Below, piece by piece: positions 12,773-62,672 of a DNA stretch of 64,000 nt. Source of the stretch: a virus. The notes beneath the pieces were generated by a model. It was given only the letters and a program-made list of their open reading frames with translations. It was not told where the DNA came from and made no database searches. The stretch is taken from positions 1 through 64,000 of the IMG/VR virus record IMGVR_UViG_3300020469_003050; one strand, given 5' to 3'. Position numbers and translations under genes: made by a program. Numbering within the stretch: the first letter of the stretch is position 1; each line of letters opens with the position of its first letter.

Positions 12773-13180
12773 ATGAAGTTTGAGCAAATTATAGAAGGCG
12801 TAGGACATAACGATTTGAAAGGTCTAGTATCAAATAGAATTTCAATAGCTGAGTTCGAACCTAAAACAGGAAACGAAGAAGATGTTATTGTTGTAGCATT
12901 CTATGTAAAAGATGATAAACCTGCTCAAGACCTAGCAACATTTATGGAAAAAGGTGTTGTTGATATTTTAGATACCGAAGTATCTCCGAATGCAGACGAT
13001 GATGGTCACTACTTAGTATTTGTTGAAATGAAGAATGAAAACATAATGAAAACTACTTTAGAACTATTAGATGATGTTGCTCGTATTTGCAGTTGTGATG
13101 ATTGGTCACTAGAATTTTATGGTGGCAAAACAGTATCAATAAAAGCAGATGAAATTGAAGGGTATCTAAAAAAGAATTAA
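12773..13180 (+). CDS. hypothetical acidic protein
   Basis: 135-aa ORF. N-terminus is MKFEQIIEG. Confidence 0.65.
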   Translation: MKFEQIIEGVGHNDLKGLVSNRISIAEFEPKTGNEEDVIVVAFYVKDDKPAQDLATFMEKGVVDILDTEVSPNADDDGHYLVFVEMKNENIMKTTLELLDDVARICSCDDWSLEFYGGKTVSIKADEIEGYLKKN

Positions 13181-48878: not shown

Positions 48879-48881
48879 AAC

Positions 48882-48909
48882 TTGACAATATCACGAATCG
48901 TGCTATATT
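48882..48909 (+). promoter_or_regulatory. sigma70-type promoter with extended -10 (twin of 48160)
   Basis: AAAACTTGACAATATCACGAATCGTGCTATATTA: TTGACA, 16 nt, TGcTATATT. Confidence 0.65.
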
Positions 48910-48941
48910 AGTTAAGTAATCAAGAGAAGGAGAGAATCATT

Positions 48942-49337
48942 ATGACACAGTTTGACAAAGAAAAATTTCATTATCACGGTGGATACTTAATGTATCACGG
49001 TACATATGAAGGTCAGCCTTCATATGAAGAAGTTTATGGCAAAGATAAAATTCATCCTTCACGTATTGGAATGCCAGTAGAACTATTCATTGCTCGTTTC
49101 AAGTACGTATTTTTTCAAGGTGCTTTTAAGAACTTCCTAGTTAAAAACTTCACAGTTGAAGAATTTGCTGAAGGTTACAAAGCTGGTAAGTCACCATTAG
49201 ACATGCTAGAGGCAAAAGGTTTTATGACTCCTCAAGCAAAGAAATTGTGTAAGCAAAACGGTATGAAGCCTACACAAGAGAACTATAAAATTTGCATTCG
49301 TGCTATGTCAGAAAAATATATAAACGAGGCCGCATAA
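48942..49337 (+). CDS. hypothetical protein
   Basis: 131 aa. RBS AAGGAGAG. Confidence 0.65.
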   Translation: MTQFDKEKFHYHGGYLMYHGTYEGQPSYEEVYGKDKIHPSRIGMPVELFIARFKYVFFQGAFKNFLVKNFTVEEFAEGYKAGKSPLDMLEAKGFMTPQAKKLCKQNGMKPTQENYKICIRAMSEKYINEAA

Positions 49338-49534
49338 TGATTAGAATTTTTAATAGTGCTTATTATAGCGATACTGGTGAAGAACGTCTAATACCAATGG
49401 ACGAGGCTAGTATCATAGAACAGAAAATAGATGCAAAGGGTCGTCCTTTTATATTCTTTGAGCATAAAGATTATCCGTTAGGTGGTCTACGTGCTTGGTT
49501 TGACGGCACTTATTGGCAGTGTGATTTAGACTAG
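49337..49534 (+). CDS. small hypothetical protein
   Basis: ORF track gives 49292..49534. ATG 49337 (MIRIFNSAY) forms a TAATG overlap with the upstream stop. Confidence 0.55.
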   Translation: MIRIFNSAYYSDTGEERLIPMDEASIIEQKIDAKGRPFIFFEHKDYPLGGLRAWFDGTYWQCDLD

Positions 49535-49542
49535 GAGGCGAT

Positions 49543-49671
49543 ATGCAACATCCAAATAACATAAAATTTACTAAAAGTACTATCTTTGGCCTATTACTTA
49601 CAGGTCTTATGATTTCAGCGAATATATACTATTTCTTTAATCCAACTCTGAAAGTTACTGAATTCTTTTAA
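49543..49671 (+). CDS. 42-aa membrane peptide, not in the ORF track
   Basis: RBS TAGGAGG 5 nt before the ATG. Reads MQHPNNIKFTKSTIFGLLLTGLMISANIYYFFNPTLKVTEFF with one TM. A strong terminator follows. Confidence 0.5.
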   Translation: MQHPNNIKFTKSTIFGLLLTGLMISANIYYFFNPTLKVTEFF

Positions 49672-49703
49672 TAGCTTGTTTTGATTCCTTTCAAGCACAA
49701 CTT

Positions 49704-49730
49704 GGCCCACTCCGTGTGGGTCTTTTTTTT
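49704..49730 (+). terminator. rho-independent terminator
   Basis: GGCCCAC-tccg-GTGGGTC followed by T9. Confidence 0.8.
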
Positions 49731-49775
49731 AATTTAAAGATAAATACACATAGCAGTTAATTATAGGAACAAAAC

Positions 49776-50894
49776 ATGAGACTATACGACTTATTTGAGA
49801 ACGAAAATACTAATCTTGTTGTGATTTATCCAGGAAGATTTCACCCATTTCACATTGGGCACGGGAAAGTATTCAAGTATCTAAAGCAAAAATACAAAGG
49901 CGCACAGGTGTTTATAGCATCTTCTGATAAAACAGATAATCATAAGTCACCTTTTACATTCCAAGAGAAGAAAAAGATGATGCAATTAGCTGGAGTAGAC
50001 CCTAATTCTATCGTTCAGTGTAAAGTTCCTTATGTTGCTACAGAGATTACAGATAGATTTGACCCAGATAAAACAGTAATAGTTTATGCAGTATCAGAGA
50101 AAGATATGGCAGAAGACCCTAGATTTAACTTTCCAGACGTTGGTATGGCTCTATTAACTAGAGGTGCTAAGAAAGGTCAACCTGCTCACATGCAGAAATG
50201 GCCAGGTATGAAGAATGCAAAACCATTACGTGACCATTCATATATTACTACAGTTCCTACATTTAAGTTTACACTTAGAGGAAAAGCAATCAATAGTGCT
50301 ACACAAATTCGTGACATGATTGCTAAAGCAGACGAGTCACAATTAGAACAGATTTTACAAGATTTATATGGCAATCCTAATATTCCAAAAGACGTAATGC
50401 AGTTGTTTCAAAACAAATTACAAAGCGGTATTACAAGTGAAAATTGGGAAGAGCCATCATTATACGAAGCGATAATGGAAGCCCAACTTACACACGATGT
50501 TGAAGAAAAGATTACTAAGAGAACACCAATGGGTGATGTAGTAAAAGATTTCTACAAAAGTGATGCTCCCCAATTTAAGGGTAAGAGCAAAGCAAAACGT
50601 AGACAGATGGCTATAGCGGCCAAACTATCTAAAATGGATGAAAAGGAAGATGATGCAGATTTACTAAAAGGGTTCGACCCAAAAACTGCAAGAGCATTGG
50701 TTCATTTAAAAACTAAATATCCACAAGCAGACAATGTGTTATCAGCCTTACTAGCAGATGTAGAAAAGAACGAAAGAGACGGTGATAAGACCGACTTCAA
50801 ACACGAACAAGAATTATCAAAACTAACAAAAGCGATAGAAGTATTGCAAAAAGAAATAAAAGTTTTGAAAAACACACAAGGAAAAATAAAATGA
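49776..50894 (+). CDS. cytidylyltransferase-fold nucleotidyltransferase (NMNAT-like) with long K/E-rich C-terminal extension
   Basis: 372 aa. The (H/T)xGH motif is in VVIYPGRFHPFHIGHGKVF (compare NMNAT GRFQPFHxGH). A later SATQIR may be ISSTxxR-like. N-terminal leader is MRLYDLFENE. Confidence 0.6.
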   Translation: MRLYDLFENENTNLVVIYPGRFHPFHIGHGKVFKYLKQKYKGAQVFIASSDKTDNHKSPFTFQEKKKMMQLAGVDPNSIVQCKVPYVATEITDRFDPDKTVIVYAVSEKDMAEDPRFNFPDVGMALLTRGAKKGQPAHMQKWPGMKNAKPLRDHSYITTVPTFKFTLRGKAINSATQIRDMIAKADESQLEQILQDLYGNPNIPKDVMQLFQNKLQSGITSENWEEPSLYEAIMEAQLTHDVEEKITKRTPMGDVVKDFYKSDAPQFKGKSKAKRRQMAIAAKLSKMDEKEDDADLLKGFDPKTARALVHLKTKYPQADNVLSALLADVEKNERDGDKTDFKHEQELSKLTKAIEVLQKEIKVLKNTQGKIK

Positions 50895-52399
50895 GATTAG
50901 ATGAAGTAGAACAACCGATAACTAATGCTCAGTTAAATGCTTTAGAGAAAGCACTAGACAAATTATTCGCTAGTCTTAATATCGATGTAGAATTTACTAG
51001 GCATTTTATTGATAGAGCAAATGATGACCGTAATGGTAATCCAATTACAATGTCAGAATTAGTAAACATGTTTAGAAAAGAATACAGACGTTGGGGCAAA
51101 CCTATTGCACAAATGGGCCCTGATGCTGAGGCAGTAATGAAAGACTTAGAAAGCGATATCAATATTCCTTTTGTATTGAAGTGGGACAGAGACAACGAAG
51201 AATTAGACTTAGTTGCTAAAACTGTTATGCGTAAAAAGAATTTTAAAACATCTAATAAAGAATTTCCTGTAGAGTCTAAAACATATAATACTATGTCAAA
51301 TGTAGGCAAAGCAAAGTATGTTGTAAACTTTCATGATGGAGAGAAAACACATAAAGATGGTTCTCGTTTCTATGACATGAGTACTTTTAAGAATGCAAAA
51401 GACTTAGAAAGTTTTGAGAAACAATTAAAATCAAAAGGGTATGTAAAAGAAACAAAAGTAGAAGAAATGCCAATACCAAAATCTACAATGTACGGACTTG
51501 TTATTGATGGTGAGTATGTTGCTAAAGGCTCAAAAGAAAAAATGAGAAGTATGCAAAAACAAAAAGGTGGAACAGTTTATAATGCTCCTGGTAAAAAAGT
51601 GGGAGATAAAGAAGGTACTGTTAAAGAAGATGAAACACCTAAACCAATGAGAAGAATTTCTGATGAAGAAAAACTTGCAGTGTTCAATGAACTAAAAGCA
51701 GGTGATACTGTACATCTTTGGTATGACTCAGCATTTAAACGTGGTGAGAAGTATAAGCCATTTAAAATGGGTAGACGTACTAAGTCAGAGAAATATAATC
51801 TATCAAAATTTTCAATGCAACAAATCAGTGCAGAAGGTATTCCAGCAGGCGTTAAATTTTTCTTATACAAAAGAGGCGACAAAGTATCTCTAGCAATGGG
51901 TGATATGGCCGCTACTCTAGTTGATATGCAGACAGACTTAGGTGAATACAAAATCAGTAGCAATAAACCTCTATCTAGTTTAGGTGGTTATGGTAATAAG
52001 AAACTTGCTAAGAAACAACCAGCAGTAGGTGATGGTATGTCAGAAGATGAAGTTTCAGAAGATGATTTTTATTTAATCGTAGAATATGAAAAAGGTAAGC
52101 CTGTTAAACAATCTGATCCTTTAAGAGTATTAGATAACTTAGCCGCACGTAATGACAATATGCCTTTCCCAATTAAGTTTAAAGATGGTGGAGACATTAA
52201 AGTTACACCTGAACTTGCAAAAAGATTTACAATGGCGTATCATGATATAGCAAGACCAGAACAAAAAGAAATGATTAAACAATATCTAAGAACTAAAGAA
52301 GGTTTCATGAAAATTGTAAAACAAATGCAATTAAAAAAGCCTGACTTTGGCAAAAATGCAGGCGCAAATATGGCCAGCTTAGATAGAAATGTTGCATAA
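50891..52399 (+). CDS. hypothetical large K/E-rich protein
   Basis: 502 aa. ATGA overlap with the upstream gene. N-terminal leader is MRLDEVEQ. Confidence 0.7.
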   Translation: MRLDEVEQPITNAQLNALEKALDKLFASLNIDVEFTRHFIDRANDDRNGNPITMSELVNMFRKEYRRWGKPIAQMGPDAEAVMKDLESDINIPFVLKWDRDNEELDLVAKTVMRKKNFKTSNKEFPVESKTYNTMSNVGKAKYVVNFHDGEKTHKDGSRFYDMSTFKNAKDLESFEKQLKSKGYVKETKVEEMPIPKSTMYGLVIDGEYVAKGSKEKMRSMQKQKGGTVYNAPGKKVGDKEGTVKEDETPKPMRRISDEEKLAVFNELKAGDTVHLWYDSAFKRGEKYKPFKMGRRTKSEKYNLSKFSMQQISAEGIPAGVKFFLYKRGDKVSLAMGDMAATLVDMQTDLGEYKISSNKPLSSLGGYGNKKLAKKQPAVGDGMSEDEVSEDDFYLIVEYEKGKPVKQSDPLRVLDNLAARNDNMPFPIKFKDGGDIKVTPELAKRFTMAYHDIARPEQKEMIKQYLRTKEGFMKIVKQMQLKKPDFGKNAGANMASLDRNVA

Positions 52400-52414
52400 T
52401 TAGGATTGTTTTAA

Positions 52415-55400
52415 ATGCGATTGCACGAATTTAAAATAGAAAAGCCCAAACCAGAAGATACTATGGGTATCACTAGAGACAAAATGCCTCAAGTGAAATC
52501 TACAGATTATGATGCATATAAATCTTATCTTAAAAAGAATGGTGTCACATTAAGACCACAAGTAGTACATGCAAAAGATTTAAAACCAGTACAATCAGAA
52601 TTTTCAGACCAAGGCGTTGAAAGACAATTAAACAAGAATAGAGAAAATGATGGACAGAACCCAAAACCTCTACTAGCAAGTAGTGACGATTGGATTATAG
52701 ATGGTCATCATAGATGGTTAGCCGCTTTAAACTCAAATAGAAACGTAAGTATTTTACGTGCAAATGTTGATGTGCATGAACTTTTATCCTTGACTTTAAA
52801 ATTTCCTAGTGTATACTTCAAAGATATCTACACAGAAGAGGAAGAGTCAATGGACGTGATTCAAAAAGCAGAGAAGTTTGCACAAGAGGCACACAAAGAC
52901 CATCAGAGAAAGTACACTGGTGATCCTTATTATGTCCATTTAGATGAAGTTAGAAACATAGTAAAACAAGCAGGCGGTACTGTAGAACAACAAGCGGCCG
53001 CTTTATTACATGATACAGTTGAAGATACAAGTGTTACACCAGTAGATGTAACAAGAGAATTTGGTCCTAAGATTGCTAAACTAGTTGTTGAACTTACTGA
53101 TGTAAGTAAACCAGAAGACGGTAATAGAAAAACACGTAAAGCAATCGATAGAGATAAACTAGCAGGTGTTAGTGCAGAAGCACAAACAGTTAAGTATGCA
53201 GACTTGATAAGCAATGGCAGAGACATAGGTAAAAATGACCCTAAGTTTGCTAAAGTGTATCATGCTGAAAAGGCAGATTTGCTAAGAGTTATGACAAAGG
53301 GTAATCAGAATTTAAGAAAACAAGCTATCGCATTATTACCTGATGAATTAAAATCAGTAGTAGGTGAGGCGTTTGGCAGAGCAAACTTTAACAAGCAATT
53401 AAAAAGAAAAGGCATCGATGTAGATAAGATGCATTCAGATAATGTTAAAGATGCTGAGGCATCTAAGAAAAGAAGTAAAGATGCAGAAGATGATTTAAAA
53501 GCATTTAGAAAAAAGCATGGCATAAAAGAAGAAACACCTTTCGGTTTACTTTCTCGTAAGATGAGTCATGTAATTAATAAAAAAGCATATATGAATATGG
53601 CACAGATGATGCATAAGATACTTACAAGAAAGTATAAAGAAACTAATGGTAAGTTAAGACATTCACTTGCCTATTATGCACAAATGTTAGCAATGCAAAC
53701 AAACAACAAAATAAACTATCGTGAACTTGAAAAAGAATACCTTGATATGTTTGGTAACGCAATGTTTGAAAACTCAGTTAAAGAGTCTTTAAACGAAGAA
53801 GCACTAAATGTTAAATCTATTATTACTCCTGCTATTCGTAAACTAGATAAAGTATTTAAAAAGAATAAACACGAAGTAAGAATTGTTGGTGGTGCAGTAA
53901 GAGATATCGCATTAGGTAAAGAGCCAAAAGATATTGACTTTGCCACAGATGCTACACCAGATGAAATGATTGCTATGCTTGATAAAGAAGGCATAAGACA
54001 TATTCCTACAGGTATAGAACATGGTACAATAACTGCGGTTATTGATGGAGAAGATTTTGAAATAACAACTTTACGTGCAGATACAAATACAGATGGTAGA
54101 CATGCTGATGTAGAATTTGTACGTTCATGGGAAGAAGATGCTAAACGTAGAGATTTAACATATAACGCAATGTCAATGGACATGGACGGTACAGTACATG
54201 ATTACAATGGTGGTATGGACGATTTACAAGATAAAGTAAGTAGGTTCGTAGGGGATCCAGAAGAAAGAATTAAAGAAGATTATTTGCGTATCTTAAGATA
54301 CTTTAGATTTCAATCTAAGTTAGATAGTCCAAAGTGGGACGATACTACATTAAATGCAATCAAAGATAATGCAGACGGTATGACAGGTTTATCTGTTGAA
54401 AGAATTTGGCAAGAAATGGGCAAATTGTTAATGGGTTCAAGTGCCAAAGAAGCACTTGAGTGGATGAACAAGACAGGCGTATCAAGTAAGATTGGACTTG
54501 AAGGTATCAATCCAGCTAAACTAGGTGAGCCTACAGGACCTATTATTGCACTTGCAAGAATGCTAGACAGTAGTGGTATTGCAAGAGATTGGAAGATGAG
54601 CAATTACGATAGAGAAATGTTTGACTTCTTAATCAAGCACAAAGGTGAAAACATAAATTCAAAACAAGCACAAGATATGATTATCAATGGTGCATCACAA
54701 GACCATTTACTTGCATGGGCAAACATGCATGGTAAGAATGATGTATATGATGCAGTACACGGATTTGAACAACCAGACTTCCCAATCAATGGTAAAGACT
54801 TACTAGCAAGAGGTTATGTAGCTGGTCCTAATCTTGGTAAGATGATTGCTGATTTAAAAGATGAGTGGATGAAATCTAACTATAAACTAAGCAAAGAACA
54901 ACTACTAAGCAAAGTTCCAGTTAGAGAAAATGCACTATTCGAAGCGGTTGCTAGATTTATGACAGGACATGGTATTACTTACAAAGGTAAGAAGTATGAT
55001 GAAATGAATGTAGAAGTAGTAGGTGTTGATAATGAAAAGAGACAATATCAAGTAATGATATTTGATCCAGAAGAATTACGTGGTGTAAATGTTATGATGA
55101 GTGCAAGATTTATGCACAGAGGCCCATGGGTTAAGACAAAGATACCTGATTACATGGGAGCAATAGAAAAAGGTTTAGATAAAGATAAGACAGATGAATG
55201 GATAGTTCCTGTTGGACAAGCAATAGCACATGGCGCCAGAATGGCGGCACCTCATGTAGCGAAGTTTCTGAGAAATGACCCTGCACCTAAGATAGCAGGT
55301 GGAGTTACATCAACAGGTGCGGCATATAATTGGGCAAAAAATAAGTACGATAGTTTTAAGAATAAGAAAAGTACAAAGCCAACAACGACAACAGAAGCAG

Positions 55401-56065
55401 AGACATCTACACCAGATGTATATGTTGATATGGACGGTGTGTTAGTTGATTTCTTCAATGAATGGGCTAGACTAGTTGGCGTTAAGTCATACAGAGATAT
55501 ACCAAAGAAAGATATAGGCAAAGCATTAAAGAAGATTGTTAGTACTCCAAACTTCTGGGAAGACTTGCCAACATTAGCAGGTTACAAAGATTTGCTACAA
55601 ACAATTAAGGCTGTAAAAGGCAAATACAAAATATTGAGTTCCCCTCTAGCAAATGATCCTAACGTAGATCCTGGCAAAAGAGAGTGGGTGAGAAAACATT
55701 TAAACTTCTTTAAACCAGAGCAAGTTATCATTGACCATAATAAATCAAAATATGCAAAGAAACAAGACGGTAGTCCGAACTTGTTAATTGATGATTTTGG
55801 TAAGAATGTCGATGCATGGCAATCAGCTGGTGGTATCGCAATTAAACATCACACAACAACTACTGCAAATACAGTACAAGCAATTAAGAAAGTATTCAGT
55901 ATAAAAGATGTTAAAGAAGCGGCTGGCGTAGGTAGAGTTATACCTGGCATAAATACCACAGTTGACGTAGGTCCCAACGAAATTACTAAACAAGCTAAAA
56001 AGTTTGGTAATGATGTAGATAAAGATGGGAAACCTAAGAAGCTACTGCGTACAAAGAAAAAATGA
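52415..56065 (+). CDS. four-domain fusion: ParB-like nuclease domain / RelA-SpoT-type HD (p)ppGpp-hydrolase-like domain / class II CCA-adding tRNA nucleotidyltransferase / HAD 5'(3')-deoxyribonucleotidase-like domain
   Basis: 1216 aa. (1) aa about 50-135: LKPVQSEF...DDWIIDGHHRWLAAL. (2) aa about 145-300: AHKDHQRKYTGDPYYVHLDEV...AALLHDTVEDT...FGPKIAKLVVELTD. (3) aa about 470-835: IVGGAVRDIALGKEPKDIDFAT...GIEHGT...AKRRDLTYNAMS...EDYLRILRYFRF. (4) aa about 1000-1170: VYVDMDGVLVDFFNEW...LLIDDF. Confidence 0.85.
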   Translation: MRLHEFKIEKPKPEDTMGITRDKMPQVKSTDYDAYKSYLKKNGVTLRPQVVHAKDLKPVQSEFSDQGVERQLNKNRENDGQNPKPLLASSDDWIIDGHHRWLAALNSNRNVSILRANVDVHELLSLTLKFPSVYFKDIYTEEEESMDVIQKAEKFAQEAHKDHQRKYTGDPYYVHLDEVRNIVKQAGGTVEQQAAALLHDTVEDTSVTPVDVTREFGPKIAKLVVELTDVSKPEDGNRKTRKAIDRDKLAGVSAEAQTVKYADLISNGRDIGKNDPKFAKVYHAEKADLLRVMTKGNQNLRKQAIALLPDELKSVVGEAFGRANFNKQLKRKGIDVDKMHSDNVKDAEASKKRSKDAEDDLKAFRKKHGIKEETPFGLLSRKMSHVINKKAYMNMAQMMHKILTRKYKETNGKLRHSLAYYAQMLAMQTNNKINYRELEKEYLDMFGNAMFENSVKESLNEEALNVKSIITPAIRKLDKVFKKNKHEVRIVGGAVRDIALGKEPKDIDFATDATPDEMIAMLDKEGIRHIPTGIEHGTITAVIDGEDFEITTLRADTNTDGRHADVEFVRSWEEDAKRRDLTYNAMSMDMDGTVHDYNGGMDDLQDKVSRFVGDPEERIKEDYLRILRYFRFQSKLDSPKWDDTTLNAIKDNADGMTGLSVERIWQEMGKLLMGSSAKEALEWMNKTGVSSKIGLEGINPAKLGEPTGPIIALARMLDSSGIARDWKMSNYDREMFDFLIKHKGENINSKQAQDMIINGASQDHLLAWANMHGKNDVYDAVHGFEQPDFPINGKDLLARGYVAGPNLGKMIADLKDEWMKSNYKLSKEQLLSKVPVRENALFEAVARFMTGHGITYKGKKYDEMNVEVVGVDNEKRQYQVMIFDPEELRGVNVMMSARFMHRGPWVKTKIPDYMGAIEKGLDKDKTDEWIVPVGQAIAHGARMAAPHVAKFLRNDPAPKIAGGVTSTGAAYNWAKNKYDSFKNKKSTKPTTTTEAETSTPDVYVDMDGVLVDFFNEWARLVGVKSYRDIPKKDIGKALKKIVSTPNFWEDLPTLAGYKDLLQTIKAVKGKYKILSSPLANDPNVDPGKREWVRKHLNFFKPEQVIIDHNKSKYAKKQDGSPNLLIDDFGKNVDAWQSAGGIAIKHHTTTTANTVQAIKKVFSIKDVKEAAGVGRVIPGINTTVDVGPNEITKQAKKFGNDVDKDGKPKKLLRTKKK

Positions 56066-57384
56066 ATGAAATAAATCCAAATCTTCATAATTTATATAAT
56101 ACGATGTGTTTCAAAAACTGGAACGACATTATTATATCCTTACCTCAAAGAACTGTTAAGTGGTGTTGTAAAACTCAATACACTAACAAACAAATGGAAG
56201 AACTTACGTTTGATTACAATACACTTACAGAAGATTTCTTATTCAATCACCCTATACTTCAAAAAAGAAAGTACGACTTAAGTGGAGGTACACGTAGTCC
56301 TGATTGCGTAGGTTGTTGGCGAACAGAAGATGCTGGTGGCAGTAGTGTAAGAACTGAATATAATAAGAATTTTGATTATCGTTTAAAAAGACAATATCAA
56401 AAAGCAGGTAATCACCCTAATTTAGCAAAACAGTTCCATAGAGATATGATGGAACATGATAACTTTAAATTCATTGAAATAGAACTAACAAACAAATGTA
56501 ATATGGCATGTGTTTATTGTTGGGGAGGTTCTAGTACTCGTTGGCAGAAAGAATTAGGTCAAAGATTTCCAGATACAGATGATGCAATGTTTGATAAGAC
56601 ACTAGAGATATTAAACGGATATTGGGATAAGAAACTTGTAGGTCAAGGTCATGTTAATTTTAGTTTGCTAGGTGGTGAGCCATTCTTTACTGACCATATG
56701 TTTAGATTTATTGAAAACTTTATGATGAATATTAACGACACACATAGGGAAGGACAGATAGTAGTAATTACAGTTACAACTAATTTAAACTTTCCTAAAA
56801 AGAAATTTGATAAATTTATTGAACTAGTAAATCGAACACCAAATATACGTTATGAAATGCAACTATCGGGTGAAGCATTACATAGACAGAGTGAGTTAAT
56901 TAGGTGGGGATTAGACTTTGCTAAATGGGACGAGAATTTAGATTTATTCTTTGAGAAATCAAAAGAAATAGATAATTTAGTATTGGGATTTGGTTGTGCC
57001 CATAACAGTTTAAGTCTTCCTTATTTTAAAGACTTCTTAGTATATCTTAATGACAAGATAAACAAATATGATTATGATAAGACAATATTAATGCATCAAA
57101 ATTGGGTAGATAATCCAGAGCATTTAGCGATAGATTCATTAGAGCCTCATCATGCAGATACAGTACAAGAACAAATAGAGTATTTTAAGAATATGTCTGG
57201 TAATTTTTATAAGAAACAAAGATATATTGGATTAATGAATACAATGAAAGACTTAGTAGCGAGTGAAGTACCAGAAAAGACTAAGTTACTTGCTCAAAAA
57301 CAGTTTAAAATGCTAGAGGATAGAAGAAAAATCTCATATTCAGAGCATTTCCCTCACTTCAATGAACTAGTAAATTTAAAATAA
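56062..57384 (+). CDS. radical SAM enzyme with N-terminal Cys-rich module (paralog of 9335..10687)
   Basis: 440 aa. CxxxCxxC in ELTNKCNMACVYCWGGSSTRW. LLGGEPFF. N-terminal KWCCKT...SPDCVGCW. ATGA overlap with the fusion gene. Confidence 0.8.
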   Translation: MNEINPNLHNLYNTMCFKNWNDIIISLPQRTVKWCCKTQYTNKQMEELTFDYNTLTEDFLFNHPILQKRKYDLSGGTRSPDCVGCWRTEDAGGSSVRTEYNKNFDYRLKRQYQKAGNHPNLAKQFHRDMMEHDNFKFIEIELTNKCNMACVYCWGGSSTRWQKELGQRFPDTDDAMFDKTLEILNGYWDKKLVGQGHVNFSLLGGEPFFTDHMFRFIENFMMNINDTHREGQIVVITVTTNLNFPKKKFDKFIELVNRTPNIRYEMQLSGEALHRQSELIRWGLDFAKWDENLDLFFEKSKEIDNLVLGFGCAHNSLSLPYFKDFLVYLNDKINKYDYDKTILMHQNWVDNPEHLAIDSLEPHHADTVQEQIEYFKNMSGNFYKKQRYIGLMNTMKDLVASEVPEKTKLLAQKQFKMLEDRRKISYSEHFPHFNELVNLK

Positions 57385-57408
57385 TTAATTAATTTGATAA
57401 ATAGTATT

Positions 57409-57645
57409 ATGAAAATAAACGAATTATTAGGTGAAAATTTTAGTGGTAGTTTCGCTAGTGTGGCATTTCCAATGACACCGGGAACGAAGGCTAAAGATGC
57501 CAGAAAGGCAGTAGATCCTTTTGGGTATCTAACACCTAAGAATAAAAAGAAACAAGAGAACTATAAGATGGGTTTTTCTGCCGATGTAGGTAACTTAGTT
57601 TATAATAAGCCTGTCAAGAGTCCAATGATTAAGAGAGCAAAATAA
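57409..57645 (+). CDS. small hypothetical protein
   Basis: ORF track start 57394 is TTG. The first ATG is 57409 (MKINELLGENF). Stop overlaps the next start (TAATG). Confidence 0.5.
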   Translation: MKINELLGENFSGSFASVAFPMTPGTKAKDARKAVDPFGYLTPKNKKKQENYKMGFSADVGNLVYNKPVKSPMIKRAK

Positions 57646-59525
57646 TGAAACTTACACAATTAACCGAGAGTTTTGTAATCAATAACGATGAGTTTGAAGA
57701 TTACTTAAACCGTGGTACGGAACAACTCAAAACAGAATTAGAAGGTGGCAAGAATGCCCGTGATGCAATACATGATATTGCACAGACATTTTCAAGCCAA
57801 CATAATAAATCATACGAAGCATATGAACGTATGTCAGATAGTCTAGCGGCTAGAATGCACACACTAGATTTAGGTGGTGGTGAAAGTCTTCCTGCAATGG
57901 CTCCTGAAGTTCCAGCAATGGATCCTGAAGCACCAAGTGATATGGACATGTCTCCAGAACAACCAGATATGGATGTGGCTCCAGAACAACCAGGTATGGA
58001 TATGGAAACACCAGATGCAGAAGAAATGCCAAACGATGAAGAAATGGCAGACTATGATGCGGTAATGGCGAATAAGCCTGATGATACAGAAGAAAGTATC
58101 GAAGAATCTTCAACTGCTCTTAAAAATAAAGAAGATTATATGGCTAAACGTAAAGCATTACAAGATATTCAGATGGACCCTGACACAAGTAAAAACGAAG
58201 AACTTAAAAAAGAATTAATGCGTAGAAAAGCAGAACTTGAAGACCAAGCAAAAGCAATGGGTATTAAAGAAGGCACTATGATTGGTGGCTTAATGAAATA
58301 TGATGGTCAACCAGAAGAAGAATATTCTGAGGCTGTTGCAAAATATAATGAGTTTATGTCTAAACCTCGTCCAGCGAGTGAAGAAACAAGTGACATGATT
58401 ATGGGATTTGTTTTTGATGATGAACTATTAGATGATATGTACGTTGCACAAGACGAAGGTAACAAAGATGTTAGACCTATGGTTGCTAAGAGAATGGAAG
58501 AACTTGGTCATGCAAATGAATCAGTTTCAGAAGCAGATGAAAAACCATACATTTGTGTACATGCTGATAAAGGCAAACACGAATGTCATGCGACTTCTTC
58601 ATACGGAGCGGCTAAAAAGGCGGCTGAACATTGGGGAATGAAATCAACTGCTGGTATCGATGCAAATTTGGCAGTAGAAGAATCAGCAATGATTGAAGAA
58701 GGTGCAATGGATACTCTAAAGAAAATTGTAGCAGACAAACAAAACATGCCTGTTAAATTTGATGATGGTCAGATGAAAGTAGATTTATTTACTGCATCGG
58801 CTGTTACACAAGTTTATGATAAAGTAAACGATGCTAACAGAGAAAAAATTGACAACATGCTAAAAACTAAAGCTGGTATGCTTAAGATTGCAGACTTTGC
58901 CTTAGGTTCTATGAAAGAAGGCAAACTAGATACTGCTATGAACGTAGCAAAGAAAGTAGGTCAAGTAGCTGGTAAAGTTAAACAAGGCGCTGACATGGCT
59001 AAGAAAGGTATTGATACTGCAAAAGCTATAGGTAAATCTGGTCCTGCTCAAGCGGCTGGTGGAATTATCGGTAAAGTAGCAAAAGCCGTTGGTGCTGGTA
59101 TACAAAATAAGGCATCAGATTTAACTGGTGGACAAATCAAAAAGTCTAAAGTAAAAGTATTCAATGCAGACGATGTAGCAGACAGAATTGTTAACAATTC
59201 GGCTAGAATTGCAATGTCAGAGTACAATGAATTCTACAAAGAACTAGATAAAGCGGCTAAGCAAGGTAAGAAAGCTGGTGACTCTATCTCAGTTGGTGGT
59301 AAGAACATCAAACTAAAATCTAATCCAAAGAAAATGTCAGACCTAACTGACTCAGACTTTGTAAAGATTGATGCACTTGCACAGAAAGTAAATGAATTGG
59401 CTCCATTAGCCCCATTAGCGGGTGCGGCGGCAAGAGCCATTGGTGGAAAAGTTATCAAAAAAGCGATTAAGGCAAGTCCAGGTGCAAAGTTTGTCAGTGC
59501 AATGACAGGCGGAAATAAAGAATAA
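57645..59525 (+). CDS. large hypothetical protein with acidic P/E/M/D repeats and a K/A/G-rich C-terminal third
   Basis: 626 aa. PEVPAMDPEAPSDMDMSPEQPDMDVAPEQPGMDMETPDAEEMPNDEEM (nt about 57888-58065). The C-terminal region is rich in GKVxxG / KKG / AKA amphipathic repeats (nt about 58905-59525). Leader is MKLTQLTE. Confidence 0.7.
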   Translation: MKLTQLTESFVINNDEFEDYLNRGTEQLKTELEGGKNARDAIHDIAQTFSSQHNKSYEAYERMSDSLAARMHTLDLGGGESLPAMAPEVPAMDPEAPSDMDMSPEQPDMDVAPEQPGMDMETPDAEEMPNDEEMADYDAVMANKPDDTEESIEESSTALKNKEDYMAKRKALQDIQMDPDTSKNEELKKELMRRKAELEDQAKAMGIKEGTMIGGLMKYDGQPEEEYSEAVAKYNEFMSKPRPASEETSDMIMGFVFDDELLDDMYVAQDEGNKDVRPMVAKRMEELGHANESVSEADEKPYICVHADKGKHECHATSSYGAAKKAAEHWGMKSTAGIDANLAVEESAMIEEGAMDTLKKIVADKQNMPVKFDDGQMKVDLFTASAVTQVYDKVNDANREKIDNMLKTKAGMLKIADFALGSMKEGKLDTAMNVAKKVGQVAGKVKQGADMAKKGIDTAKAIGKSGPAQAAGGIIGKVAKAVGAGIQNKASDLTGGQIKKSKVKVFNADDVADRIVNNSARIAMSEYNEFYKELDKAAKQGKKAGDSISVGGKNIKLKSNPKKMSDLTDSDFVKIDALAQKVNELAPLAPLAGAAARAIGGKVIKKAIKASPGAKFVSAMTGGNKE

Positions 59526-59539: not shown

Positions 59540-59568
59540 TTGACTTTCGTAGTCACTTAATGTATTAT
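59540..59568 (+). promoter_or_regulatory. sigma70-type promoter upstream of the DNA polymerase operon
   Basis: TTGACT (59540-59545), 17 nt, TATTAT (59563-59568) with TG immediately upstream. Confidence 0.6.
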
Positions 59569-59569: not shown

Positions 59570-59602
59570 AAAGAGTGTTTCAGAAATGGGACACTCTTTT
59601 TT
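59570..59602 (+). terminator. rho-independent terminator overlapping the predicted transcription start of the preceding promoter
   Basis: AAAGAGTGT (59570-59578), 12-nt loop, ACACTCTTT (59591-59599), T-run to 59602. Confidence 0.7.
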
Positions 59603-59882: not shown

Positions 59883-62672
59883 ATGAGTTATGTAGACGCC
59901 TATTACAACAGAGATAAAGACATTGTTCAAGTCATAGAACGTGTCAATGGAAAACGTGTCTATAACGACTTCCCTGCATGGCGTACATTTTATGTCAAAG
60001 ATCCTAGAGGACAACACACTAGTATTCATGGTGACAAAGTACGTGAGATTAAATGCAAACGATTAAAAGATTTACACAAAGAGCGAAGAATAAACTCAGG
60101 TAAATCACTATACGAAAGCGATATCAAACCAGAAGTAAGATGTTTAAGTGAGAACTACAACGGTGTAGATTCTCCAAAGCTACATGTTGCGTTTTTTGAT
60201 ATCGAGGTAGACTTTGATGCAGATAAGGGATTTGCTCCTCCAGAGGATCCCTTTATGCCTATCACTGCAATTACTGTTTATCTACAGTGGTTAGATAAAC
60301 TAGTTACGTTTGCTATCCCTCCTAAGCATATGCAAGAAGGAGAAGGTCTAGAGGAAGCAGAACGAATCTGTAAACAATTCGATGATACATTTTTATATCT
60401 TGACGAAGTAGATATGTTAAATGACTTCATTGCATTAATTGATGATGCAGATGTTGTATCTGGTTGGAACTCAGAAGGTTTTGATATCCCATATACAGTT
60501 AGACGTATTACTCGTATGATGAGTAAATCACATACACGTAAACTTTGTTTGTGGGATTTACTTCCACACGAAAGACGGGTAGTTAAGTATGGTAGAGAAC
60601 AAATCACATATGACTTGTCAGGTCGTATTCACTTAGACTATCTTGAACTTTATCGTAAGTATACATATCATGAAATGCATTCATATTCACTTGATGCTAT
60701 TGGTGAGTATGAACTTGGTGAAAACAAAGTTCCATATGATGGAACTCTTGACCAATTATACAACAGAGATTTTTACAAGTACATTGAATATAACAGACAA
60801 GACGTTGCACTACTAGGCAACTTAGATAAAAAATTACAATTCATTGACTTAGCAAATGAGATTGCACACGACAACACAGTTAATATCAAAACAACTATGG
60901 GTGCAGTTGCAGTTACAGAACAAGCGATTATTAATGAGGCACATCGTAGAGATATGGTCGTGCCTGATAGAAAAGCTAAAGATTGGGGAGAAGATGATAT
61001 CGAACCAACTGATGCAGAACTAGAAGAAGCAGAGAAACAAAAAGCCGCAGGTGCTTTTGTGGCAAATCCAAAGACAGGTATTCAACGATGGGTATCAGGT
61101 ATTGATATCAATTCACTTTATCCTTCAATCATTCGTGCATTGAATATGTCTCCAGAAACTATTGTTGCACAACTTGAGCCAACTCTAACAGAGAAGATGA
61201 TTGGTGATAGAATTGCACATGGTAGACGAAATGGTAGTAAAGGTTTCGGTGCGGCTCAGGCTTGGGAAGATACGTTTAGTGCAGAAGAATTCAGACTAGT
61301 CAATGAAAAAGATAAGACAGAAAAGATTAATCTTAAATTAGAGTCAGGCGAAGTAGCAGACATGACTGGTGCAGAGATACATAACTTAGTATTTCATAGC
61401 GACTTGCAATGGGCTATTACTGCCAATGGCACTGTTCTTAAACAAGACGTACAAGGTATCATTCCTAGTTTATTAGAACGTTGGTATGCTGAACGTAAGA
61501 TACTACAAACGAACAAGAAGAAAGCTATTGAAGAAGGTGATAAAGAAAAGATTGCGTTCTGGGATAAACGACAACTAGTTAAAAAGATTAACTTGAATAG
61601 TTTGTATGGTGCGATTCTAAATCCAGGGTGTCGTTTCTATGATAAACGTATTGGTCAGAGTACAACTCTATCTGGTCGTTGTATCACAAGACATATGGGT
61701 GCTAAAACTAATGAAGTAATTGCTGGTACTTATGACTACAAAGGCGAGTCCATCATCTATGGCGATACAGATAGTATCTATTATTCTATGTATCCTGTTT
61801 ACAAGGAAGACATTGATGAAGGTAAGATTGAATGGACTAGAGAAAAAGTTATTGAACTGTATGATGAGATTGCAAATCAAGTCAATGCAAGTTTCCCTGA
61901 CTTTATGAAAGACTTCTTTAATTCTCCACGTAAGCAAGGTGAAATTATTGCGGCAGGTCGAGAGAACTGTGCAAGTATGGGTATCTTTATTAAGAAGAAA
62001 CGTTATGCAATGCTTATTTTTGATGATGAGGGTGTAAGAAAAGACGTAGATGGTAAACCTGGTAAAGTAAAAGCTATGGGTCTCGACTTGAAACGTAGTG
62101 ATACTCCTGATTATATGCAGAACTTTTTGAGTGATGTTCTTGTTAAAATTTTAACAGACGGAACGGAACAAGACGTAATCGAAATGGTTAAAGAGTTTAA
62201 AAAAGAATTCAGAGCAAAGCCTGGTTGGGAAAAGGGTACTCCTAAACGTGTTAACAATCTTACTATGTATAGAAATAAAGTAAAAAAGATTGCAAAGCAA
62301 CAAGGCAAAGATTTCAAACTAGAAGGCGAAGATAATAAGAAAGATAAAATTCATTTGCCAGGTCATGTCAGTGCGGCTTTGAATTGGAATACATTACGTG
62401 AACTTCATGCAGACAAATACTCTATTGAGATTGTTGATGGTATGAAAACTATTGTATGTAAACTAAAACCTAATGCGTTAAAAATGACAAGTGTTGCATA
62501 TCCAATTGATGAAAAACGTATCCCTGAATGGTTTCAAGAACTTCCTTTTGATGATGAGTTAATGGAAGCAACAATCATTGATAAGAAACTAGATAATCTT
62601 ATTGGTGTTCTTAAGTGGGACCTAAGTGATGCTGATGCATCTGAACAATTTACAAATCTATTTGAGTTTTAA
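59883..62672 (+). CDS. family B DNA polymerase (T4 gp43-like) with 3'-5' exonuclease domain
   Basis: 929 aa. Exo I FFDIEV, Exo II GWNSEGFDIPY, Exo III YNRQDVALL. Pol motif A DINSLYPS, motif B KKINLNSLYG, motif C YGDTDS. Confidence 0.95.
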   Translation: MSYVDAYYNRDKDIVQVIERVNGKRVYNDFPAWRTFYVKDPRGQHTSIHGDKVREIKCKRLKDLHKERRINSGKSLYESDIKPEVRCLSENYNGVDSPKLHVAFFDIEVDFDADKGFAPPEDPFMPITAITVYLQWLDKLVTFAIPPKHMQEGEGLEEAERICKQFDDTFLYLDEVDMLNDFIALIDDADVVSGWNSEGFDIPYTVRRITRMMSKSHTRKLCLWDLLPHERRVVKYGREQITYDLSGRIHLDYLELYRKYTYHEMHSYSLDAIGEYELGENKVPYDGTLDQLYNRDFYKYIEYNRQDVALLGNLDKKLQFIDLANEIAHDNTVNIKTTMGAVAVTEQAIINEAHRRDMVVPDRKAKDWGEDDIEPTDAELEEAEKQKAAGAFVANPKTGIQRWVSGIDINSLYPSIIRALNMSPETIVAQLEPTLTEKMIGDRIAHGRRNGSKGFGAAQAWEDTFSAEEFRLVNEKDKTEKINLKLESGEVADMTGAEIHNLVFHSDLQWAITANGTVLKQDVQGIIPSLLERWYAERKILQTNKKKAIEEGDKEKIAFWDKRQLVKKINLNSLYGAILNPGCRFYDKRIGQSTTLSGRCITRHMGAKTNEVIAGTYDYKGESIIYGDTDSIYYSMYPVYKEDIDEGKIEWTREKVIELYDEIANQVNASFPDFMKDFFNSPRKQGEIIAAGRENCASMGIFIKKKRYAMLIFDDEGVRKDVDGKPGKVKAMGLDLKRSDTPDYMQNFLSDVLVKILTDGTEQDVIEMVKEFKKEFRAKPGWEKGTPKRVNNLTMYRNKVKKIAKQQGKDFKLEGEDNKKDKIHLPGHVSAALNWNTLRELHADKYSIEIVDGMKTIVCKLKPNALKMTSVAYPIDEKRIPEWFQELPFDDELMEATIIDKKLDNLIGVLKWDLSDADASEQFTNLFEF

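Follow-up and report, generated by a model that had tools for sequence, protein, structure and literature searches.

Five of six consecutive genes in the window (the whole 64,000-nt stretch of marine jumbo-phage DNA analysed here) open with one short pattern, M-[RK]-[LI]-x-[DEQ]-[LVF] (Table 1), and we conclude that this leader is probably a portable virion-incorporation signal, specific to the jumbo phages of the T4 superfamily that form the Atu_ph07/Rak2-like clade and comparable in function with the T4 capsid targeting sequence (CTS). By analogy with these relatives, the window's own leader proteins are also likely to be packaged in the virion, and would lie inside the head; whether the leader is cleaved is close to an even question, and ejection of the proteins to counter host defences is a somewhat more tentative proposal. 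The initial annotation had given the five N-termini, and the radical-SAM gene without the pattern, exactly as we find them.

Clustering of the motif in the block exceeds chance. Of 82 ORFs in the window, the pattern in its initial form picks out five, which are contiguous and lie inside the block, and a class-based version opens 9 of the 406 N-terminal families counted over the window and 86 related loci, six of the nine being block families and the stand-alone CCA enzyme. A PSSM trained on MS-confirmed Atu_ph07 leaders alone, so that scoring of the window is out-of-sample, places four of the five named genes among the five best-scoring N-termini of the 77 in the window (median score -9.4; hypergeometric p ~1.8e-5), and 0.2% of internal Met 8-mers score >=4. 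Comparison with other N-termini thus bears out the enrichment that the initial annotation, with the caveat of a short motif, had proposed to test.

Table 1. Features of the block and its surroundings, with N-termini, the residue at which (L/I)xE ends, and PSSM scores (rank among 77 window N-termini).
Feature	Position	Strand	N-terminus	(L/I)xE end	PSSM (rank)	Remarks
Leader-like start	12773..13180	+	MKFEQIIE		5.9 (3)	phrog_13138, annotated virion structural protein
Intrinsic terminator	49704..49730	+				hairpin GGCCCACTCCGTGTGGGTC then T8; closes upstream early-type genes, insulates block
T4-late-type promoter element	49739..49746	+				GATAAATA, 29 nt upstream of g1 ATG
g1	49776..50894	+	MRLYDLFENE	8	13.7 (1)	372-aa NMNAT-like nucleotidyltransferase (HxGH); leader MRLYDLFE; DUF6321-like segment, residues 236-285
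g2	50891..52399	+	MRLDEVEQPI	5	-2.0 (13)	502-aa basic protein; leader MRLDEVEQP; phrog_23027 + phrog_14518
g3	52415..56065	+	MRLHEFKIEK	5	3.4 (top five, tied)	1216-aa polyvalent-type fusion; leader MRLHEF; Pfam + PHROG domains
g4	56062..57384	+	MNEINPNL			440-aa radical-SAM protein; Pfam Radical_SAM + Fer4_12; pI 6.5
Second promoter element	57396..57403	+				GATAAATA, 5 nt upstream of g5 ATG
g5	57409..57645	+	MKINELLGEN	5 and 9	5.2 (top five)	78-aa basic protein, pI 10; leader MKINELLGE
g6	57645..59525	+	MKLTQLTESF	8	11.5 (2)	626-aa protein; leader MKLTQLTE
Sigma70-like promoter for dsbA	59540-59568					overlaps region of operon's end terminator
Operon-ending terminator	59572..59602	+				hairpin AGAGTGT...ACACTCT + T-run

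Judged by its sequence signals, the block is a single operon, bounded by terminators and placed behind a T4-late-type promoter. In a 353-kb relative (ENA ERZ28548087, contig_20330) the stem letters of the upstream terminator have changed with pairing retained, and AGATAAATACACATAGCAGTTAATTATAGGA around the g1 promoter element is identical. Sites of the form [GT]ATAAATA are intergenic in 11 of 19 cases, though intergenic DNA makes up 6.4% of the window, and the GATAAATA promoter class shows a ~9-fold intergenic enrichment and is found before structural genes; the early-type neighbour genes have near-consensus sigma70 promoters. Because the class also lies upstream of tRNAs and non-structural operons, we infer, rather than read directly, the late timing of the block. 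The arrangement seen at g5 recurs as ctGATAAATAcagtt-ATG, conserved in four T4-like contigs ahead of a stand-alone CCA gene whose product starts MRINEV. In Atu_ph07, NATAAATA lies 19-33 nt before the leader genes, as at g1; it was not found upstream of the CCA, NadR and polymerase genes of that phage.

Among cultured relatives whose virion proteomes have been published, Agrobacterium phage Atu_ph07 is the closest (PMC6102473), and there the leader is strongly predictive of virion association. With the regex fixed earlier in the family-level count and applied unchanged to this genome, 23 of the 26 annotated proteins that carry the leader appear in the virion MS table against 108 of 688 others (Fisher p=3.4e-15), where ORFs are mapped to the table by calculated mass and gene order, not accession, and the table reports association with the particle, not location within it. 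Independent leader families (11/14 MS-positive where the background is 18%, p=1.7e-6) and dispersed leader genes (7/10 where the local background is 10%, p=1.2e-5) give the same picture. The consensus of the 23 MS-positive leaders is M-[RK]-[WLY]-x-[QDE]-[LI]-x-E; every one has L/I as residue 6 and 19 have E as residue 8. The MS-positive set includes enzymes (gp196, an amidoligase, and gp381, weakly ART-like). Since the virions were PEG-purified only, and one peptide sufficed to call some of the 131 proteins, including gp199, co-purification of abundant late proteins is conceivable. Orthologues of g1, g3, g5, and g6 were not found in Atu_ph07, and its CCA enzyme gp18, NadR (NMNAT) gp587, and NT5C-like protein carry no leader and are not in the virion list; for CCA and NMNAT this fits the logic of the leader, and it also means that enzymes of these exact types have yet to be seen in a virion.

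The head module of the clade carries the leader as well. A ~70-80-aa protein encoded directly 3′ of the portal gene opens with MKLTELF in Atu_ph07 (gp199, MS-positive), MKLVELF in Vibrio phage 2.275.O, MKINDII in Pseudomonas phage 30-3, and MRYNEFS in Phosso, and 41 of 50 distinct environmental variants have a leader start, mostly MRL.EFYNPE; this protein accounts for 71 of the 76 leader matches among 772 head-locus ORFs, and lies between portal and protease, the position of the T4 core protein gp67. T4 gp21-type prohead proteases are encoded by Atu_ph07, CBB, Vibrio phage 2.275.O, and marine loci, and the clade leader ends in (L/I)xE, the specificity of gp21. The clade thus supplies both the prohead protease and the leader-bearing head protein that the initial annotation had proposed to look for; in the window's lineage, no single contig was found to carry both the block and the small head protein. 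In T4, 10 N-terminal residues suffice as a CTS, residues 4 and 7 serving in targeting and residues 8 and 10 in processing, and the packaged proteins include an enzyme, Alt (PMC9026906). The clade PSSM gives T4 leaders negative scores, and the clade leader has a consensus of its own, which makes it an analogue of the T4 CTS and not an example of it; among T4 N-termini read directly, gp24 (MAKINELLRE) shares KINELL.E with g5. The initial suggestion of a T4-like capsid-targeting add-on therefore has strong, if indirect, support as to the type of element, from the tracking of the N-terminus (see below), the post-portal protein, the Atu_ph07 virion data, the prohead protease with the matching (L/I)xE, and the late-type promoter, but not as to its sequence.

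Particle association would also be expected if the leader were a docking or assembly peptide for another part of the particle or a late complex (tail whiskers or hairs, for example, or a scaffold outside the head), in which case the block proteins would be virion- or complex-associated and not ejected with the DNA. The MS data are silent on location, the largest Atu_ph07 leader family (gp53-63, gp408, and gp482) is a function-unassigned paralogue array whose cluster also holds a fibre-like protein, and Atu_ph07 and CBB-type phages bear unusual external appendages (PMC6102473, PMC5259590). We nonetheless consider this unlikely: i) the sole position-conserved leader protein sits in the head module, within the portal-protease interval; ii) the leader ends in a prohead-protease motif; iii) known tail, baseplate, and fibre proteins, and portal and MCP proteins too, carry no leader; and iv) amidoligase, NMNAT-like, and CCA cargo is implausible on an external appendage.

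Position at the N-terminus, rather than fold, governs where the motif occurs. It is found on unrelated domains, and some family members are without it: most of the 1278 members of the g2 family start MRLDEL, MRINEV, MKINEF, or MRLFEL, some have no leader, and a subfamily with an ~85-aa insert still has MKLSELLNI at the extreme N-terminus. Stand-alone CCA enzymes start MRINEV, and inside the g3 fusion the corresponding segment is without the motif; the gene of the stand-alone enzyme lies behind its own GATAAATA, flanked by the genes for tail sheath and tail tube. Leader codons change synonymously, and positions 2 and 4 vary freely with positions 3, 5, and 6 fixed; the leader is selected at the protein level. 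These observations weigh against a second alternative, that strongly translated late genes bear the motif as an N-terminal expression signature, perhaps tied to short or absent mRNA 5′ leaders behind GATAAATA, and that the Atu_ph07 proteins were listed as abundant late proteins co-purifying in the PEG preparation, with its 131 detected proteins. Late-type promoters do precede all leader genes, and the element lies 5-7 nt from the ATG at g5, the 12240 gene, and the stand-alone CCA gene, suggesting leaderless or near-leaderless mRNAs. But Shine-Dalgarno contexts are ordinary at g1, g2, g3, and g6, the motif is missing from the late proteins of highest abundance (MCP, sheath, portal, and scaffold), residue classes are retained as codons vary, the motif stays terminal across domain insertions, and the conserved Glu at position 8 has no obvious translational role, all of which make an expression signature rather improbable.

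Met-basic-hydrophobic motifs at the N-terminus form one class of signals recognised by ClpX, and the leader might be a recognition tag or degron for phage Clp-type AAA+ machinery, timing protein unfolding or degradation. Atu_ph07 encodes ClpA-like, ClpX, ClpP, and ClpS-like adaptor proteins, and shares with the window (14255-16850) a gene pair for a conserved double-AAA+ ATPase (phrog_4871; 738 aa in the window) and a DnaJ-like (J-domain) protein; this explanation is nevertheless very improbable, as it leaves the particle-associated Atu_ph07 leader proteins and the tagged head-module protein unexplained, and acidic positions 5 and 8 are atypical of known Clp N-motifs. Coincidence, with a short K/E/L/I-rich pattern recurring in an AT-rich proteome and each N-terminus part of its own fold, could draw on the brevity of the motif, the similar clamp-loader string MNLKELWVEKYRP, and a g3 start (MRLHEFKIEKP) that could alternatively be the first strand of the ParB-like domain, but is scarcely credible given the few, contiguous window matches, the few matching families, the out-of-sample ranking (p ~2e-5), the rarity of high-scoring internal 8-mers, and leader presence or absence independent of domain.

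If the leader is a virion-incorporation signal, the block would be transcribed late as one operon from the T4-late-type promoter, and the short amphipathic acidic leader, with hydrophobic positions 3 and 6, would dock the proteins on the assembling prohead core, where the conserved small core-position protein encoded after the portal bears the same leader. The gp21-type protease would then probably remove the leader at (L/I)-x-E, and the mature NMNAT-like enzyme, ParB-HD-CCA-NT5C polyvalent enzyme, small basic protein, and two function-unassigned proteins would be retained in the particle and plausibly enter the next host along with the DNA. NAD re-synthesis and tRNA 3′-end repair could in that case act ahead of any phage gene expression.

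The individual genes fit this scheme unevenly. In g1, which matches NadM-type phage proteins and a cyanophage DUF6321 segment (72% identical), Pfam CTP_transf_like covers residues 17-111, confirming that the leader lies before the nucleotidyltransferase fold. The g2 leader is followed by a conserved ~115-aa domain without assigned function (residues 10-125), the C-terminal part of the protein being variable, and g2 is probably a distant homologue of the MS-positive virion protein gp561 of Atu_ph07, the link being modest (hhalign E=1.5e-4, probability 51%). The g3 fusion comprises a ParB-like DGHHR region, HD_4, CCA-adding tRNA nucleotidyltransferase, and NT5C nucleotidase; its residues 1-6 match the MRL.EF of the small head protein, relatives start MRLDEF, MRLAEF, MKLSEF, or MKIKEL, and orthologues in a ~54%-identical lineage retain MKIKELKIDKP. 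Neither g2 nor g3 has L-x-E at residues 6-8, and their PSSM scores are low and moderate, respectively. The radical-SAM gene g4 lies inside the operon yet has no leader, which counts against the scheme. Mechanical ORF calling begins g5 at TTG 57394, and relatives conserve ATG 57409 and the GATAAATA before it; g5 has no Pfam or PHROG match. The N-terminal two thirds of g6 are acidic and Pro/Glu/Asp-rich and the tail basic and Ala/Gly/Lys-rich, and residues 346-424 match Melnitz gp30, which adjoins gp31, a homologue of the g2 domain.

Two further leader-like starts named in the initial annotation fared differently. We reject that at 6548, where the protein is a clamp loader and MNLKELWVEKYRP forms the RFC box of its fold, with a PSSM score of -0.5. 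The start at 12773, in a family whose N-termini differ in other phages, stands: homologues are jumbo-phage virion proteins including 121Q gp63 and the MS-positive Atu_ph07 gp305.

The five N-termini singled out in the initial annotation are all present in the window at the starts of g1, g2, g3, g5, and g6, the radical SAM gene g4 of the same block lacks the pattern as claimed, and among all window N-termini the original expression M-[RK]-[LI]-x-[DEQ]-[LVF] matches 5/82 ORFs, all five in the block. As that expression had been framed post hoc, we relaxed it to classes of residues, M-[KR]-φ-x-[DEQN]-φ, and counted families rather than genes over the window and 86 related loci; the class-based motif is found in 9/406 N-terminal families, six of which are g1, g2, g3, g5, g6, and a stand-alone CCA enzyme. 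In close relatives (71-95% identity) the leader codons vary synonymously (AGA/CGA/CGC; CTA/TTA/TTG), and residues 2 and 4 vary while residues 3, 5, and 6 are held (MRLHEF/MKLSEF/MRLDEF/MRLAEF; MKINEL/MKLTEL/MKIRDI), so that the leader is constrained as protein and not as RNA.

Genes of the block, flanking signals, and other features discussed; positions are those of the window unless another genome or locus is named
Feature	Position	Length	Description
Terminator, strong	49704-49730		upstream of g1
GATAAATA	49739 (+)		T4-late-like element, 29 nt ahead of g1 ATG
g1	49776-50894	372 aa	NMNAT-like HxGH nucleotidyltransferase with DUF6321-like segment; Pfam match from residue 17
DUF6321-like segment of g1	50481-50630	50 residues	residues 236-285 (…TPMGDVVKDFYKSDAPQFKGKSKAKRRQMAIAAK…)
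g2	50891-52399	502 aa	conserved domain at residues 10-125, no function assigned
g3	52415-56065	1216 aa	fusion of ParB-like (DGHHR), HD_4, CCA-adding enzyme, and NT5C
g4	56062-57384	440 aa	radical SAM, without leader; Cys-rich N-terminal region
GATAAATA, second copy	57396 (+)		5 nt ahead of g5
g5	57409-57645	78 aa	basic, pI 10
g6	57645-59525	626 aa	acidic front; basic A/G/K-rich tail
Terminator	59572-59602		after g6
DNA polymerase, family B	59883-62672
[GT]ATAAATA, intergenic	5051, 12225, 29571, 36773, 45069, 47164, 49739, 57396 (+); 38886, 45052, 4834 (-)
tRNA genes	4957-5034, 36800-37204, 45096-45604		Trp, Thr, Leu, Gly, Ala, Asp in three small clusters
Radical SAM protein	9335-10687	450 aa	Cys-rich N-terminal region
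Virion-protein homologue	from 12773	135 aa	226-245 aa in relatives
Next ORF	13180-13395	71 aa
J-domain protein, then double-AAA+ protein	14255-16850	738 aa (AAA+)	ClpA/B-like, phrog_4871
Ten-gene operon	38404-45042 (-)		PP-loop ATPase-like, two P-loop proteins with GAPGS[KR]WS, others
L087 block region	10001-18574		g2, g3, and g6 called as several pieces
Atu_ph07 gp53-gp63, gp408, gp482	39484-50592, 304780-305556, 349666-350502		13-member leader-bearing virion family, phrog_12810
Atu_ph07 (MF403008.1) unannotated ORF	315248-315526 (-)	92 aa	perfect leader
Atu_ph07 (MF403008.1) unannotated ORF	22449-22868 (+)	139 aa	perfect leader
Melnitz gp31 (L059)	5905-6354		MKTFLQFEQ
Paraglaciecola GD1 gp42 (L060)	5962-6372		MKSFEQYIEE
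L034 protein	16674-17243	189 aa	MKTFKQYLTE
Melnitz gp27			MKNFKNHIAEE

The window is an AT-rich, ~34% GC fragment of a T4-superfamily jumbo myophage. Its family-B DNA polymerase has 42-48% identity with the polymerases of Sinorhizobium phage Phosso, the Agrobacterium jumbo phage Atu_ph07, and the Rak2-like phages CBB and GAP32, and the window has in common with these phages the gene order clamp loader, virion-protein pair, Clp-type AAA+ with J-domain protein, tail fibres, and dsbA plus polymerase. The pair of J-domain and double-AAA+ proteins is kept in Atu_ph07, CBB, and Ettore, and Atu_ph07 also encodes ClpX, ClpP, and a ClpS-like adaptor. A near-identity search of the block DNA against deposited phages gave no match, and in Atu_ph07 a DNA ligase gene lies upstream of dsbA, with no block orthologue there. 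In a 353-kb relative (L087; ENA ERZ28548087 contig_20330, 353,084 bp, long-read-derived) the break points that split g2, g3, and g6 overlap and are without start signals; the splits look like frameshift errors and not true gene splits.

The initial annotation saw the leader of the NMNAT-like protein as a likely add-on ahead of the fold, and domain matches do begin only at residue 17 in g1, residue 10 in g2, and residue 12 in g3. The leader is moreover separable from the mature fold, being present or absent within one family and terminal even after a domain insertion. Specifically, i) of the 1278 relatives retrieved by a deep search with g2 residues 1-135, several lie on 270-353 kb contigs, most start MRLDEL, MRINEV, MKINEF, MRIDEV, MKISDI, MRLFEL, or MKLFEV, and some begin directly at the domain (MAEITQAQL, MSQPVTKAQL); ii) a g2 subfamily with an extra insert of ~85 residues still has MKLSELLNI at its extreme N-terminus; iii) in phiM12 gp458 the g2 domain is C-terminal, with no leader ahead of the domain; and iv) MRINEVILHEE opens the stand-alone CCA(+NT5C) enzymes of T4-like marine contigs, and in the g3 fusion it is the new N-terminus, not the homologous internal segment (~455-470), that has the motif. 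An AlphaFold2 model of g2 residues 1-135 reached a pLDDT of 57.

By its motifs, GRFHPFHIGHG at residues 20-30 (HxGH after strand 1) and NSATQIRD further on (SxTxxR, C-terminal), g1 is a member of the NMNAT/cytidylyltransferase-like nucleotidyltransferases; it matches Pfam PF01467 at E=1.2e-9, and its phage matches are NadM-type. Its DUF6321-like segment has 72% identity with "DUF6321" proteins that stand alone in Synechococcus and Prochlorococcus myophages, and recurs at the C-terminus of the CCA protein of one related locus (L079), behaving as a mobile module. In g3, the ParB-like region is assigned by its DGHHR motif and a PHROG of unknown function (phrog_2859), and is accompanied by HD_4, PolyA_pol with its RNA-binding domain (a class II CCA enzyme), and NT5C; Pfam ParBc, MuF, and peptidase domains were sought at E<=0.01 and none matched. 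The neighbours of g3 include dsbA and the DNA polymerase; in its stand-alone form, CCA(+NT5C) is flanked by the tail sheath and tail tube genes.

Whether such leaders mark virion proteins can be judged from Atu_ph07, for which a virion table of 131 proteins was obtained by ESI-MS/MS; the particles were PEG-purified only, and MS shows association with the particle but no location (PMC6102473). We applied the class-based expression unchanged to 487 kb of assembled genome and paired leader ORFs with entries of the MS table on the basis of calculated mass and gene order. Of the annotated proteins with the leader, 23/26 are MS-positive in these PEG-purified particles, compared with 108/688 others (Fisher p=3.4e-15): gp43, gp46, gp47, gp53-63, gp196, gp199, gp381, gp408, gp482, gp487, gp548, gp561, and gp672. 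With paralogues collapsed, 11/14 leader families are MS-positive against a background of 18% (p=1.7e-6), and outside the big structural clusters the figure is 7 of 10 leader genes against 10% (p=1.2e-5). The consensus is M-[RK]-[WLY]-x-[QDE]-[LI]-x-E, with L/I at position 6 in 23/23 and E at position 8 in 19/23, and its end conforms to (L/I)xE, the specificity of the T4 prohead protease gp21. Among the MS-positive leader proteins, gp196 is an amidoligase (above the Pfam threshold), gp381 is weakly ART-like, and gp561 (MRLIDLLEDISAYDLKRIEKALDAF), detected by 7 peptides at 52% coverage, is probably a remote relative of the g2 domain (hhalign E=1.5e-4, probability 51%). The leader families of Atu_ph07 have homologues only in phages that lack MS-based annotation.

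A matrix built from the MS-positive Atu_ph07 leaders (positions 2-8, family-weighted) and applied to 77 window N-termini ranks g1 (13.7), g6 (11.5), the protein at 12773 (5.9), g5 (5.2), and g3 (3.4, tied) as the top five, against a median of -9.4, so that four of the five named genes fall within the top five (p=1.8e-5). The remaining one, g2, scores -2.0; g2 and g3 match the clade consensus less well than g1, g5, and g6. We had considered the "virion structural" family at 12773 as a positive control within the window and rejected it; its N-termini differ between phages (MKIVEGL, MKQYLREGL, MKKKLNEQGL), and it therefore lends weak support. The window copy is short relative to its relatives, and the next ORF may be a separate gene or part of a truncated or split member of this family.

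The initial annotation had pointed to head proteins and to a prohead protease as places to look for the same system. Atu_ph07, Phosso, CBB, Pseudomonas phage 30-3, and marine Vibrio phage 2.275.O share a head module of T4 order, namely portal, a 70-80-aa protein in the position of T4 gp67, a ~250-aa protein, a gp21-type protease, scaffold, and MCP, and the small post-portal protein carries the leader: MKLTELFNPL in Atu_ph07 gp199, MKLVELFEAN in 2.275.O, MKINDIITEG in 30-3, MRYNEFSKES in Phosso, and M-LDEIFEAK in CBB. Across the 557 database members of this family the leader is kept, in full or shortened by one residue. In 80 environmental head-module loci the full leader is found in 41/50 distinct small-protein N-termini, mostly as MRL[DNTVR]EFYNPE, with the same first six residues as in g3 orthologues (MRLDEF); of 76 leader matches among the 772 ORFs of these loci, 71 are the small post-portal protein, and portal, protease, scaffold, and MCP lack the leader there. 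The tail/baseplate/fibre cluster of CBB, one 50-kb region taken as negative control, has no leader-bearing gene. As for the protease, a gp21-type enzyme (Peptidase_S77) is encoded by Atu_ph07 (gp204), CBB (CBB_255), Vibrio phage 2.275.O, and marine head-module loci; the 64-kb window has none. Among the matches listed we found neither a prohead protease on a contig of the window's own lineage, nor the small head protein on a block-carrying contig by profile, single-sequence, or degenerate DNA searches, nor a copy of it on the 353-kb contig.

The block is flanked by terminators, has no sigma70-type promoter, and is headed by GATAAATA, one of 19 window sites for [GT]ATAAATA, which departs from the T4 late promoter TATAAATA in no more than one base; 11/19 sites lie in the intergenic 6.4% of the sequence, a strong enrichment. 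Such sites stand ahead of the virion-protein pair, a structural gene, two tRNAs, and a few further operons, and the tail-fibre operon has a copy 56 nt upstream, inside a gene. The clamp loader, dsbA, and the small ORFs immediately before the block have near-consensus sigma70 promoters. We infer from the T4-late-like element that the block would be expressed late, alongside head assembly. The 353-kb relative has the same promoter and 5′ region, with compensated changes in the terminator stem, and the stand-alone CCA gene with the start MRINEV has its own terminator and GATAAATA, kept in four contigs. Leader genes heading transcription units in Atu_ph07 have NATAAATA 19-33 nt upstream. The window sites fall into two spacing classes, 19-30 nt to a start codon or tRNA versus 2-7 nt to ATG (the 12240 gene, g5, and 45042(-)), the latter of which would give leaderless or near-leaderless mRNAs. 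Several of the six tRNA genes lie directly behind such a motif, and the ten-gene minus-strand operon has both sigma70-like and TATAAATA elements upstream.

The proposed likeness to the T4 capsid targeting sequence (CTS) stands in part. In T4 IPIII, prohead targeting needs no more than the first 10 residues, with residues 4 and 7 responsible for targeting and residues 8 and 10 for cleavage by gp21; Alt, a packaged enzyme, has a very short propeptide (PMC9026906). Like the gp21 propeptides of IPI-III, Alt, and gp24, the leader is an N-terminal add-on of about 6-10 residues on unrelated proteins, combines acidic residues with a pair of hydrophobic positions spaced three apart and a candidate (L/I)-x-E site, sits on putatively late genes (behind the T4-late-like promoter) in a T4-superfamily clade with a gp21-type protease, and would include enzymes among its cargo, as Alt is in T4. 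Positions 3 and 6 are hydrophobic without exception in the five block leaders and in 23/23 Atu_ph07 leaders, in a register shifted by one relative to T4. The candidate (L/I)-x-E site ends at residue 8 (g1, g6) or 9 (g5), and the sole such site of g2 and g3 at residue 5. Short add-on and hydrophobic spacing thus agree, but the T4 consensus MK[TS][YF].[EQ]F[IL].E does not, position 3 of the block leaders being L/I and position 5 acidic: M-[RK]-φ-x-[DEQ]-[LIVF]-x-E here compares with MKTYQEFIAE in T4, differing in both consensus and register. Since the consensus is unmatched, the T4 leaders score negative on the clade matrix (IPIII -6.9, gp24 -5.7, Alt -3.5), and only g5 comes near gp24 (MKINELLGE and MAKINELLRE, sharing KINELL.E), we regard the block leader as an analogue of the T4 CTS and not a member by sequence; g1 MRLYDLFENE also resembles Alt MELITELFDE. 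The cargo differs as well: T4 packages an ADP-ribosyltransferase and internal proteins that are small and basic, whereas the predicted cargo here is an NMNAT-like enzyme and a ParB-HD-CCA-NT5C fusion. Targeting, cleavage, and ejection are proven by experiment in T4 but only predicted from sequence here.

Two other systems bear comparison. Polyvalent proteins combine several effector-type catalytic domains in one chain, are predicted to be packaged and injected with DNA, and classically carry MuF, DdrB-type ParB, MPTase peptidase, or ArdC hubs beside packaging genes (PMC5512222); g3 likewise has at least two effector domains (ParB-like, SpoT-type HD, nucleotidyltransferase, and nucleotidase), but no head-anchor domain matched in it and it lies beside DNA polymerase, so that the leader of 6-8 residues would be its packaging address. 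The phiKZ-like phages and SPN3US have multiple head-internal or ejection proteins, including paralogues with conserved N-termini, which are prohead-targeted and trimmed by a T4-related protease (PMC5694885); their propeptides, in another jumbo group, are 20-130 residues long with [S/A/G]-x-E cleavage, unlike the short T4-like length here.

The leader is best explained as a clade-specific packaging signal of capsid-targeting type, a different consensus of a known principle. Phage NAD+ salvage and tRNA-repair enzymes (KVP40 NadV/NatV; CCA-adding enzymes) are ordinary intracellular early or middle enzymes in known cases, and g1 and g3 share their signatures, but here these signatures come with a packaging-type leader and a late-type promoter; the Atu_ph07 CCA enzyme, NadR, and NT5C-like protein are without leader and absent from the virion list, and the CCA, NadR, and polymerase genes there are without NATAAATA upstream. 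A RiPP-type reading, with g4 as radical SAM enzyme and g5 as small peptide, was rejected because the same leader stands on large enzymes; g4, inside the leader operon and beside g5, is one of two radical SAM proteins of the window with Cys-rich N-terminal regions. Returning to a packaging signal, we predict, with rather more confidence than doubt, that the five leader proteins of the window are virion cargo. Cleavage of the leader, argued from T4, falls just short of an even prospect, and injection with a counter-defence role, argued likewise, is somewhat more doubtful. Equally tentative is the wider proposal that an address of 6-8 residues is common to the jumbo clade and, placed on marine NAD-salvage and tRNA-repair/nucleotide enzymes, might make the virion a ready-made counter-defence kit against NAD-depleting and tRNA-cleaving immunity, ahead of phage gene expression. 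Among the accessible literature, the leader is not mentioned in the Atu_ph07 and CBB papers or in the jumbo-phage comparative overview.

We envisage that the block proteins would be made late and docked to the prohead core via the leader, which would be trimmed at (L/I)xE, leaving the mature proteins in the particle, and that by analogy they would probably be carried into the host along with the DNA. With several effector domains in one chain, g3 is built like the polyvalent proteins, for which injection is predicted (PMC5512222); g5 is similar to the internal proteins of T4, which are also small and basic; and NAD re-synthesis (g1) together with tRNA 3′-end repair and nucleotide processing (g3) would be useful at entry. 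A clade-wide address definable by sequence would make the packaged, possibly injected, proteome readable from the genome: if it is such an address, a sequence rule predicts particle proteins in Atu_ph07/Rak2-like and related marine jumbo phages, including some of the ~100 virion proteins of unknown function in Atu_ph07/Rak2-like phages, most of which have no other handle. If true, it would also extend the T4 capsid-targeting principle, under a different consensus, to a large and environmentally abundant phage group; provide a short tag with which foreign proteins could be loaded into jumbo capsids; and mean that NAD-synthesis and tRNA 3′-end-repair enzymes are delivered pre-made with the genome, a new phage route to pre-empt abortive-infection systems that destroy NAD+ or tRNAs.

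Several minor observations concern related phages. The 13-member phrog_12810 family of Atu_ph07 has the motifs YRGM..DTG, SFICTTS, and NEVW.SGNVLF, which recall R-S-E ADP-ribosyltransferases such as T4 Alt; it has no Pfam match, and we offer the resemblance as a lead only. The locus L034 was considered as carrier of a T4 head module and rejected, its PHROGs being those of tail tube, head closure, and TerL; replication genes come after its 639-aa "portal" candidate. Small proteins of marine T4-like phages of Kyanoviridae type, including Melnitz gp27, have starts very close to the T4 CTS (table), and these lineages may use a classical T4-type CTS. Finally, the two unannotated Atu_ph07 ORFs with perfect leaders, one starting MRLFDLFEKH, almost identical to g1 of the relative L001, and the other MRIIDLEYAE, may be missed genes for further packaged proteins.
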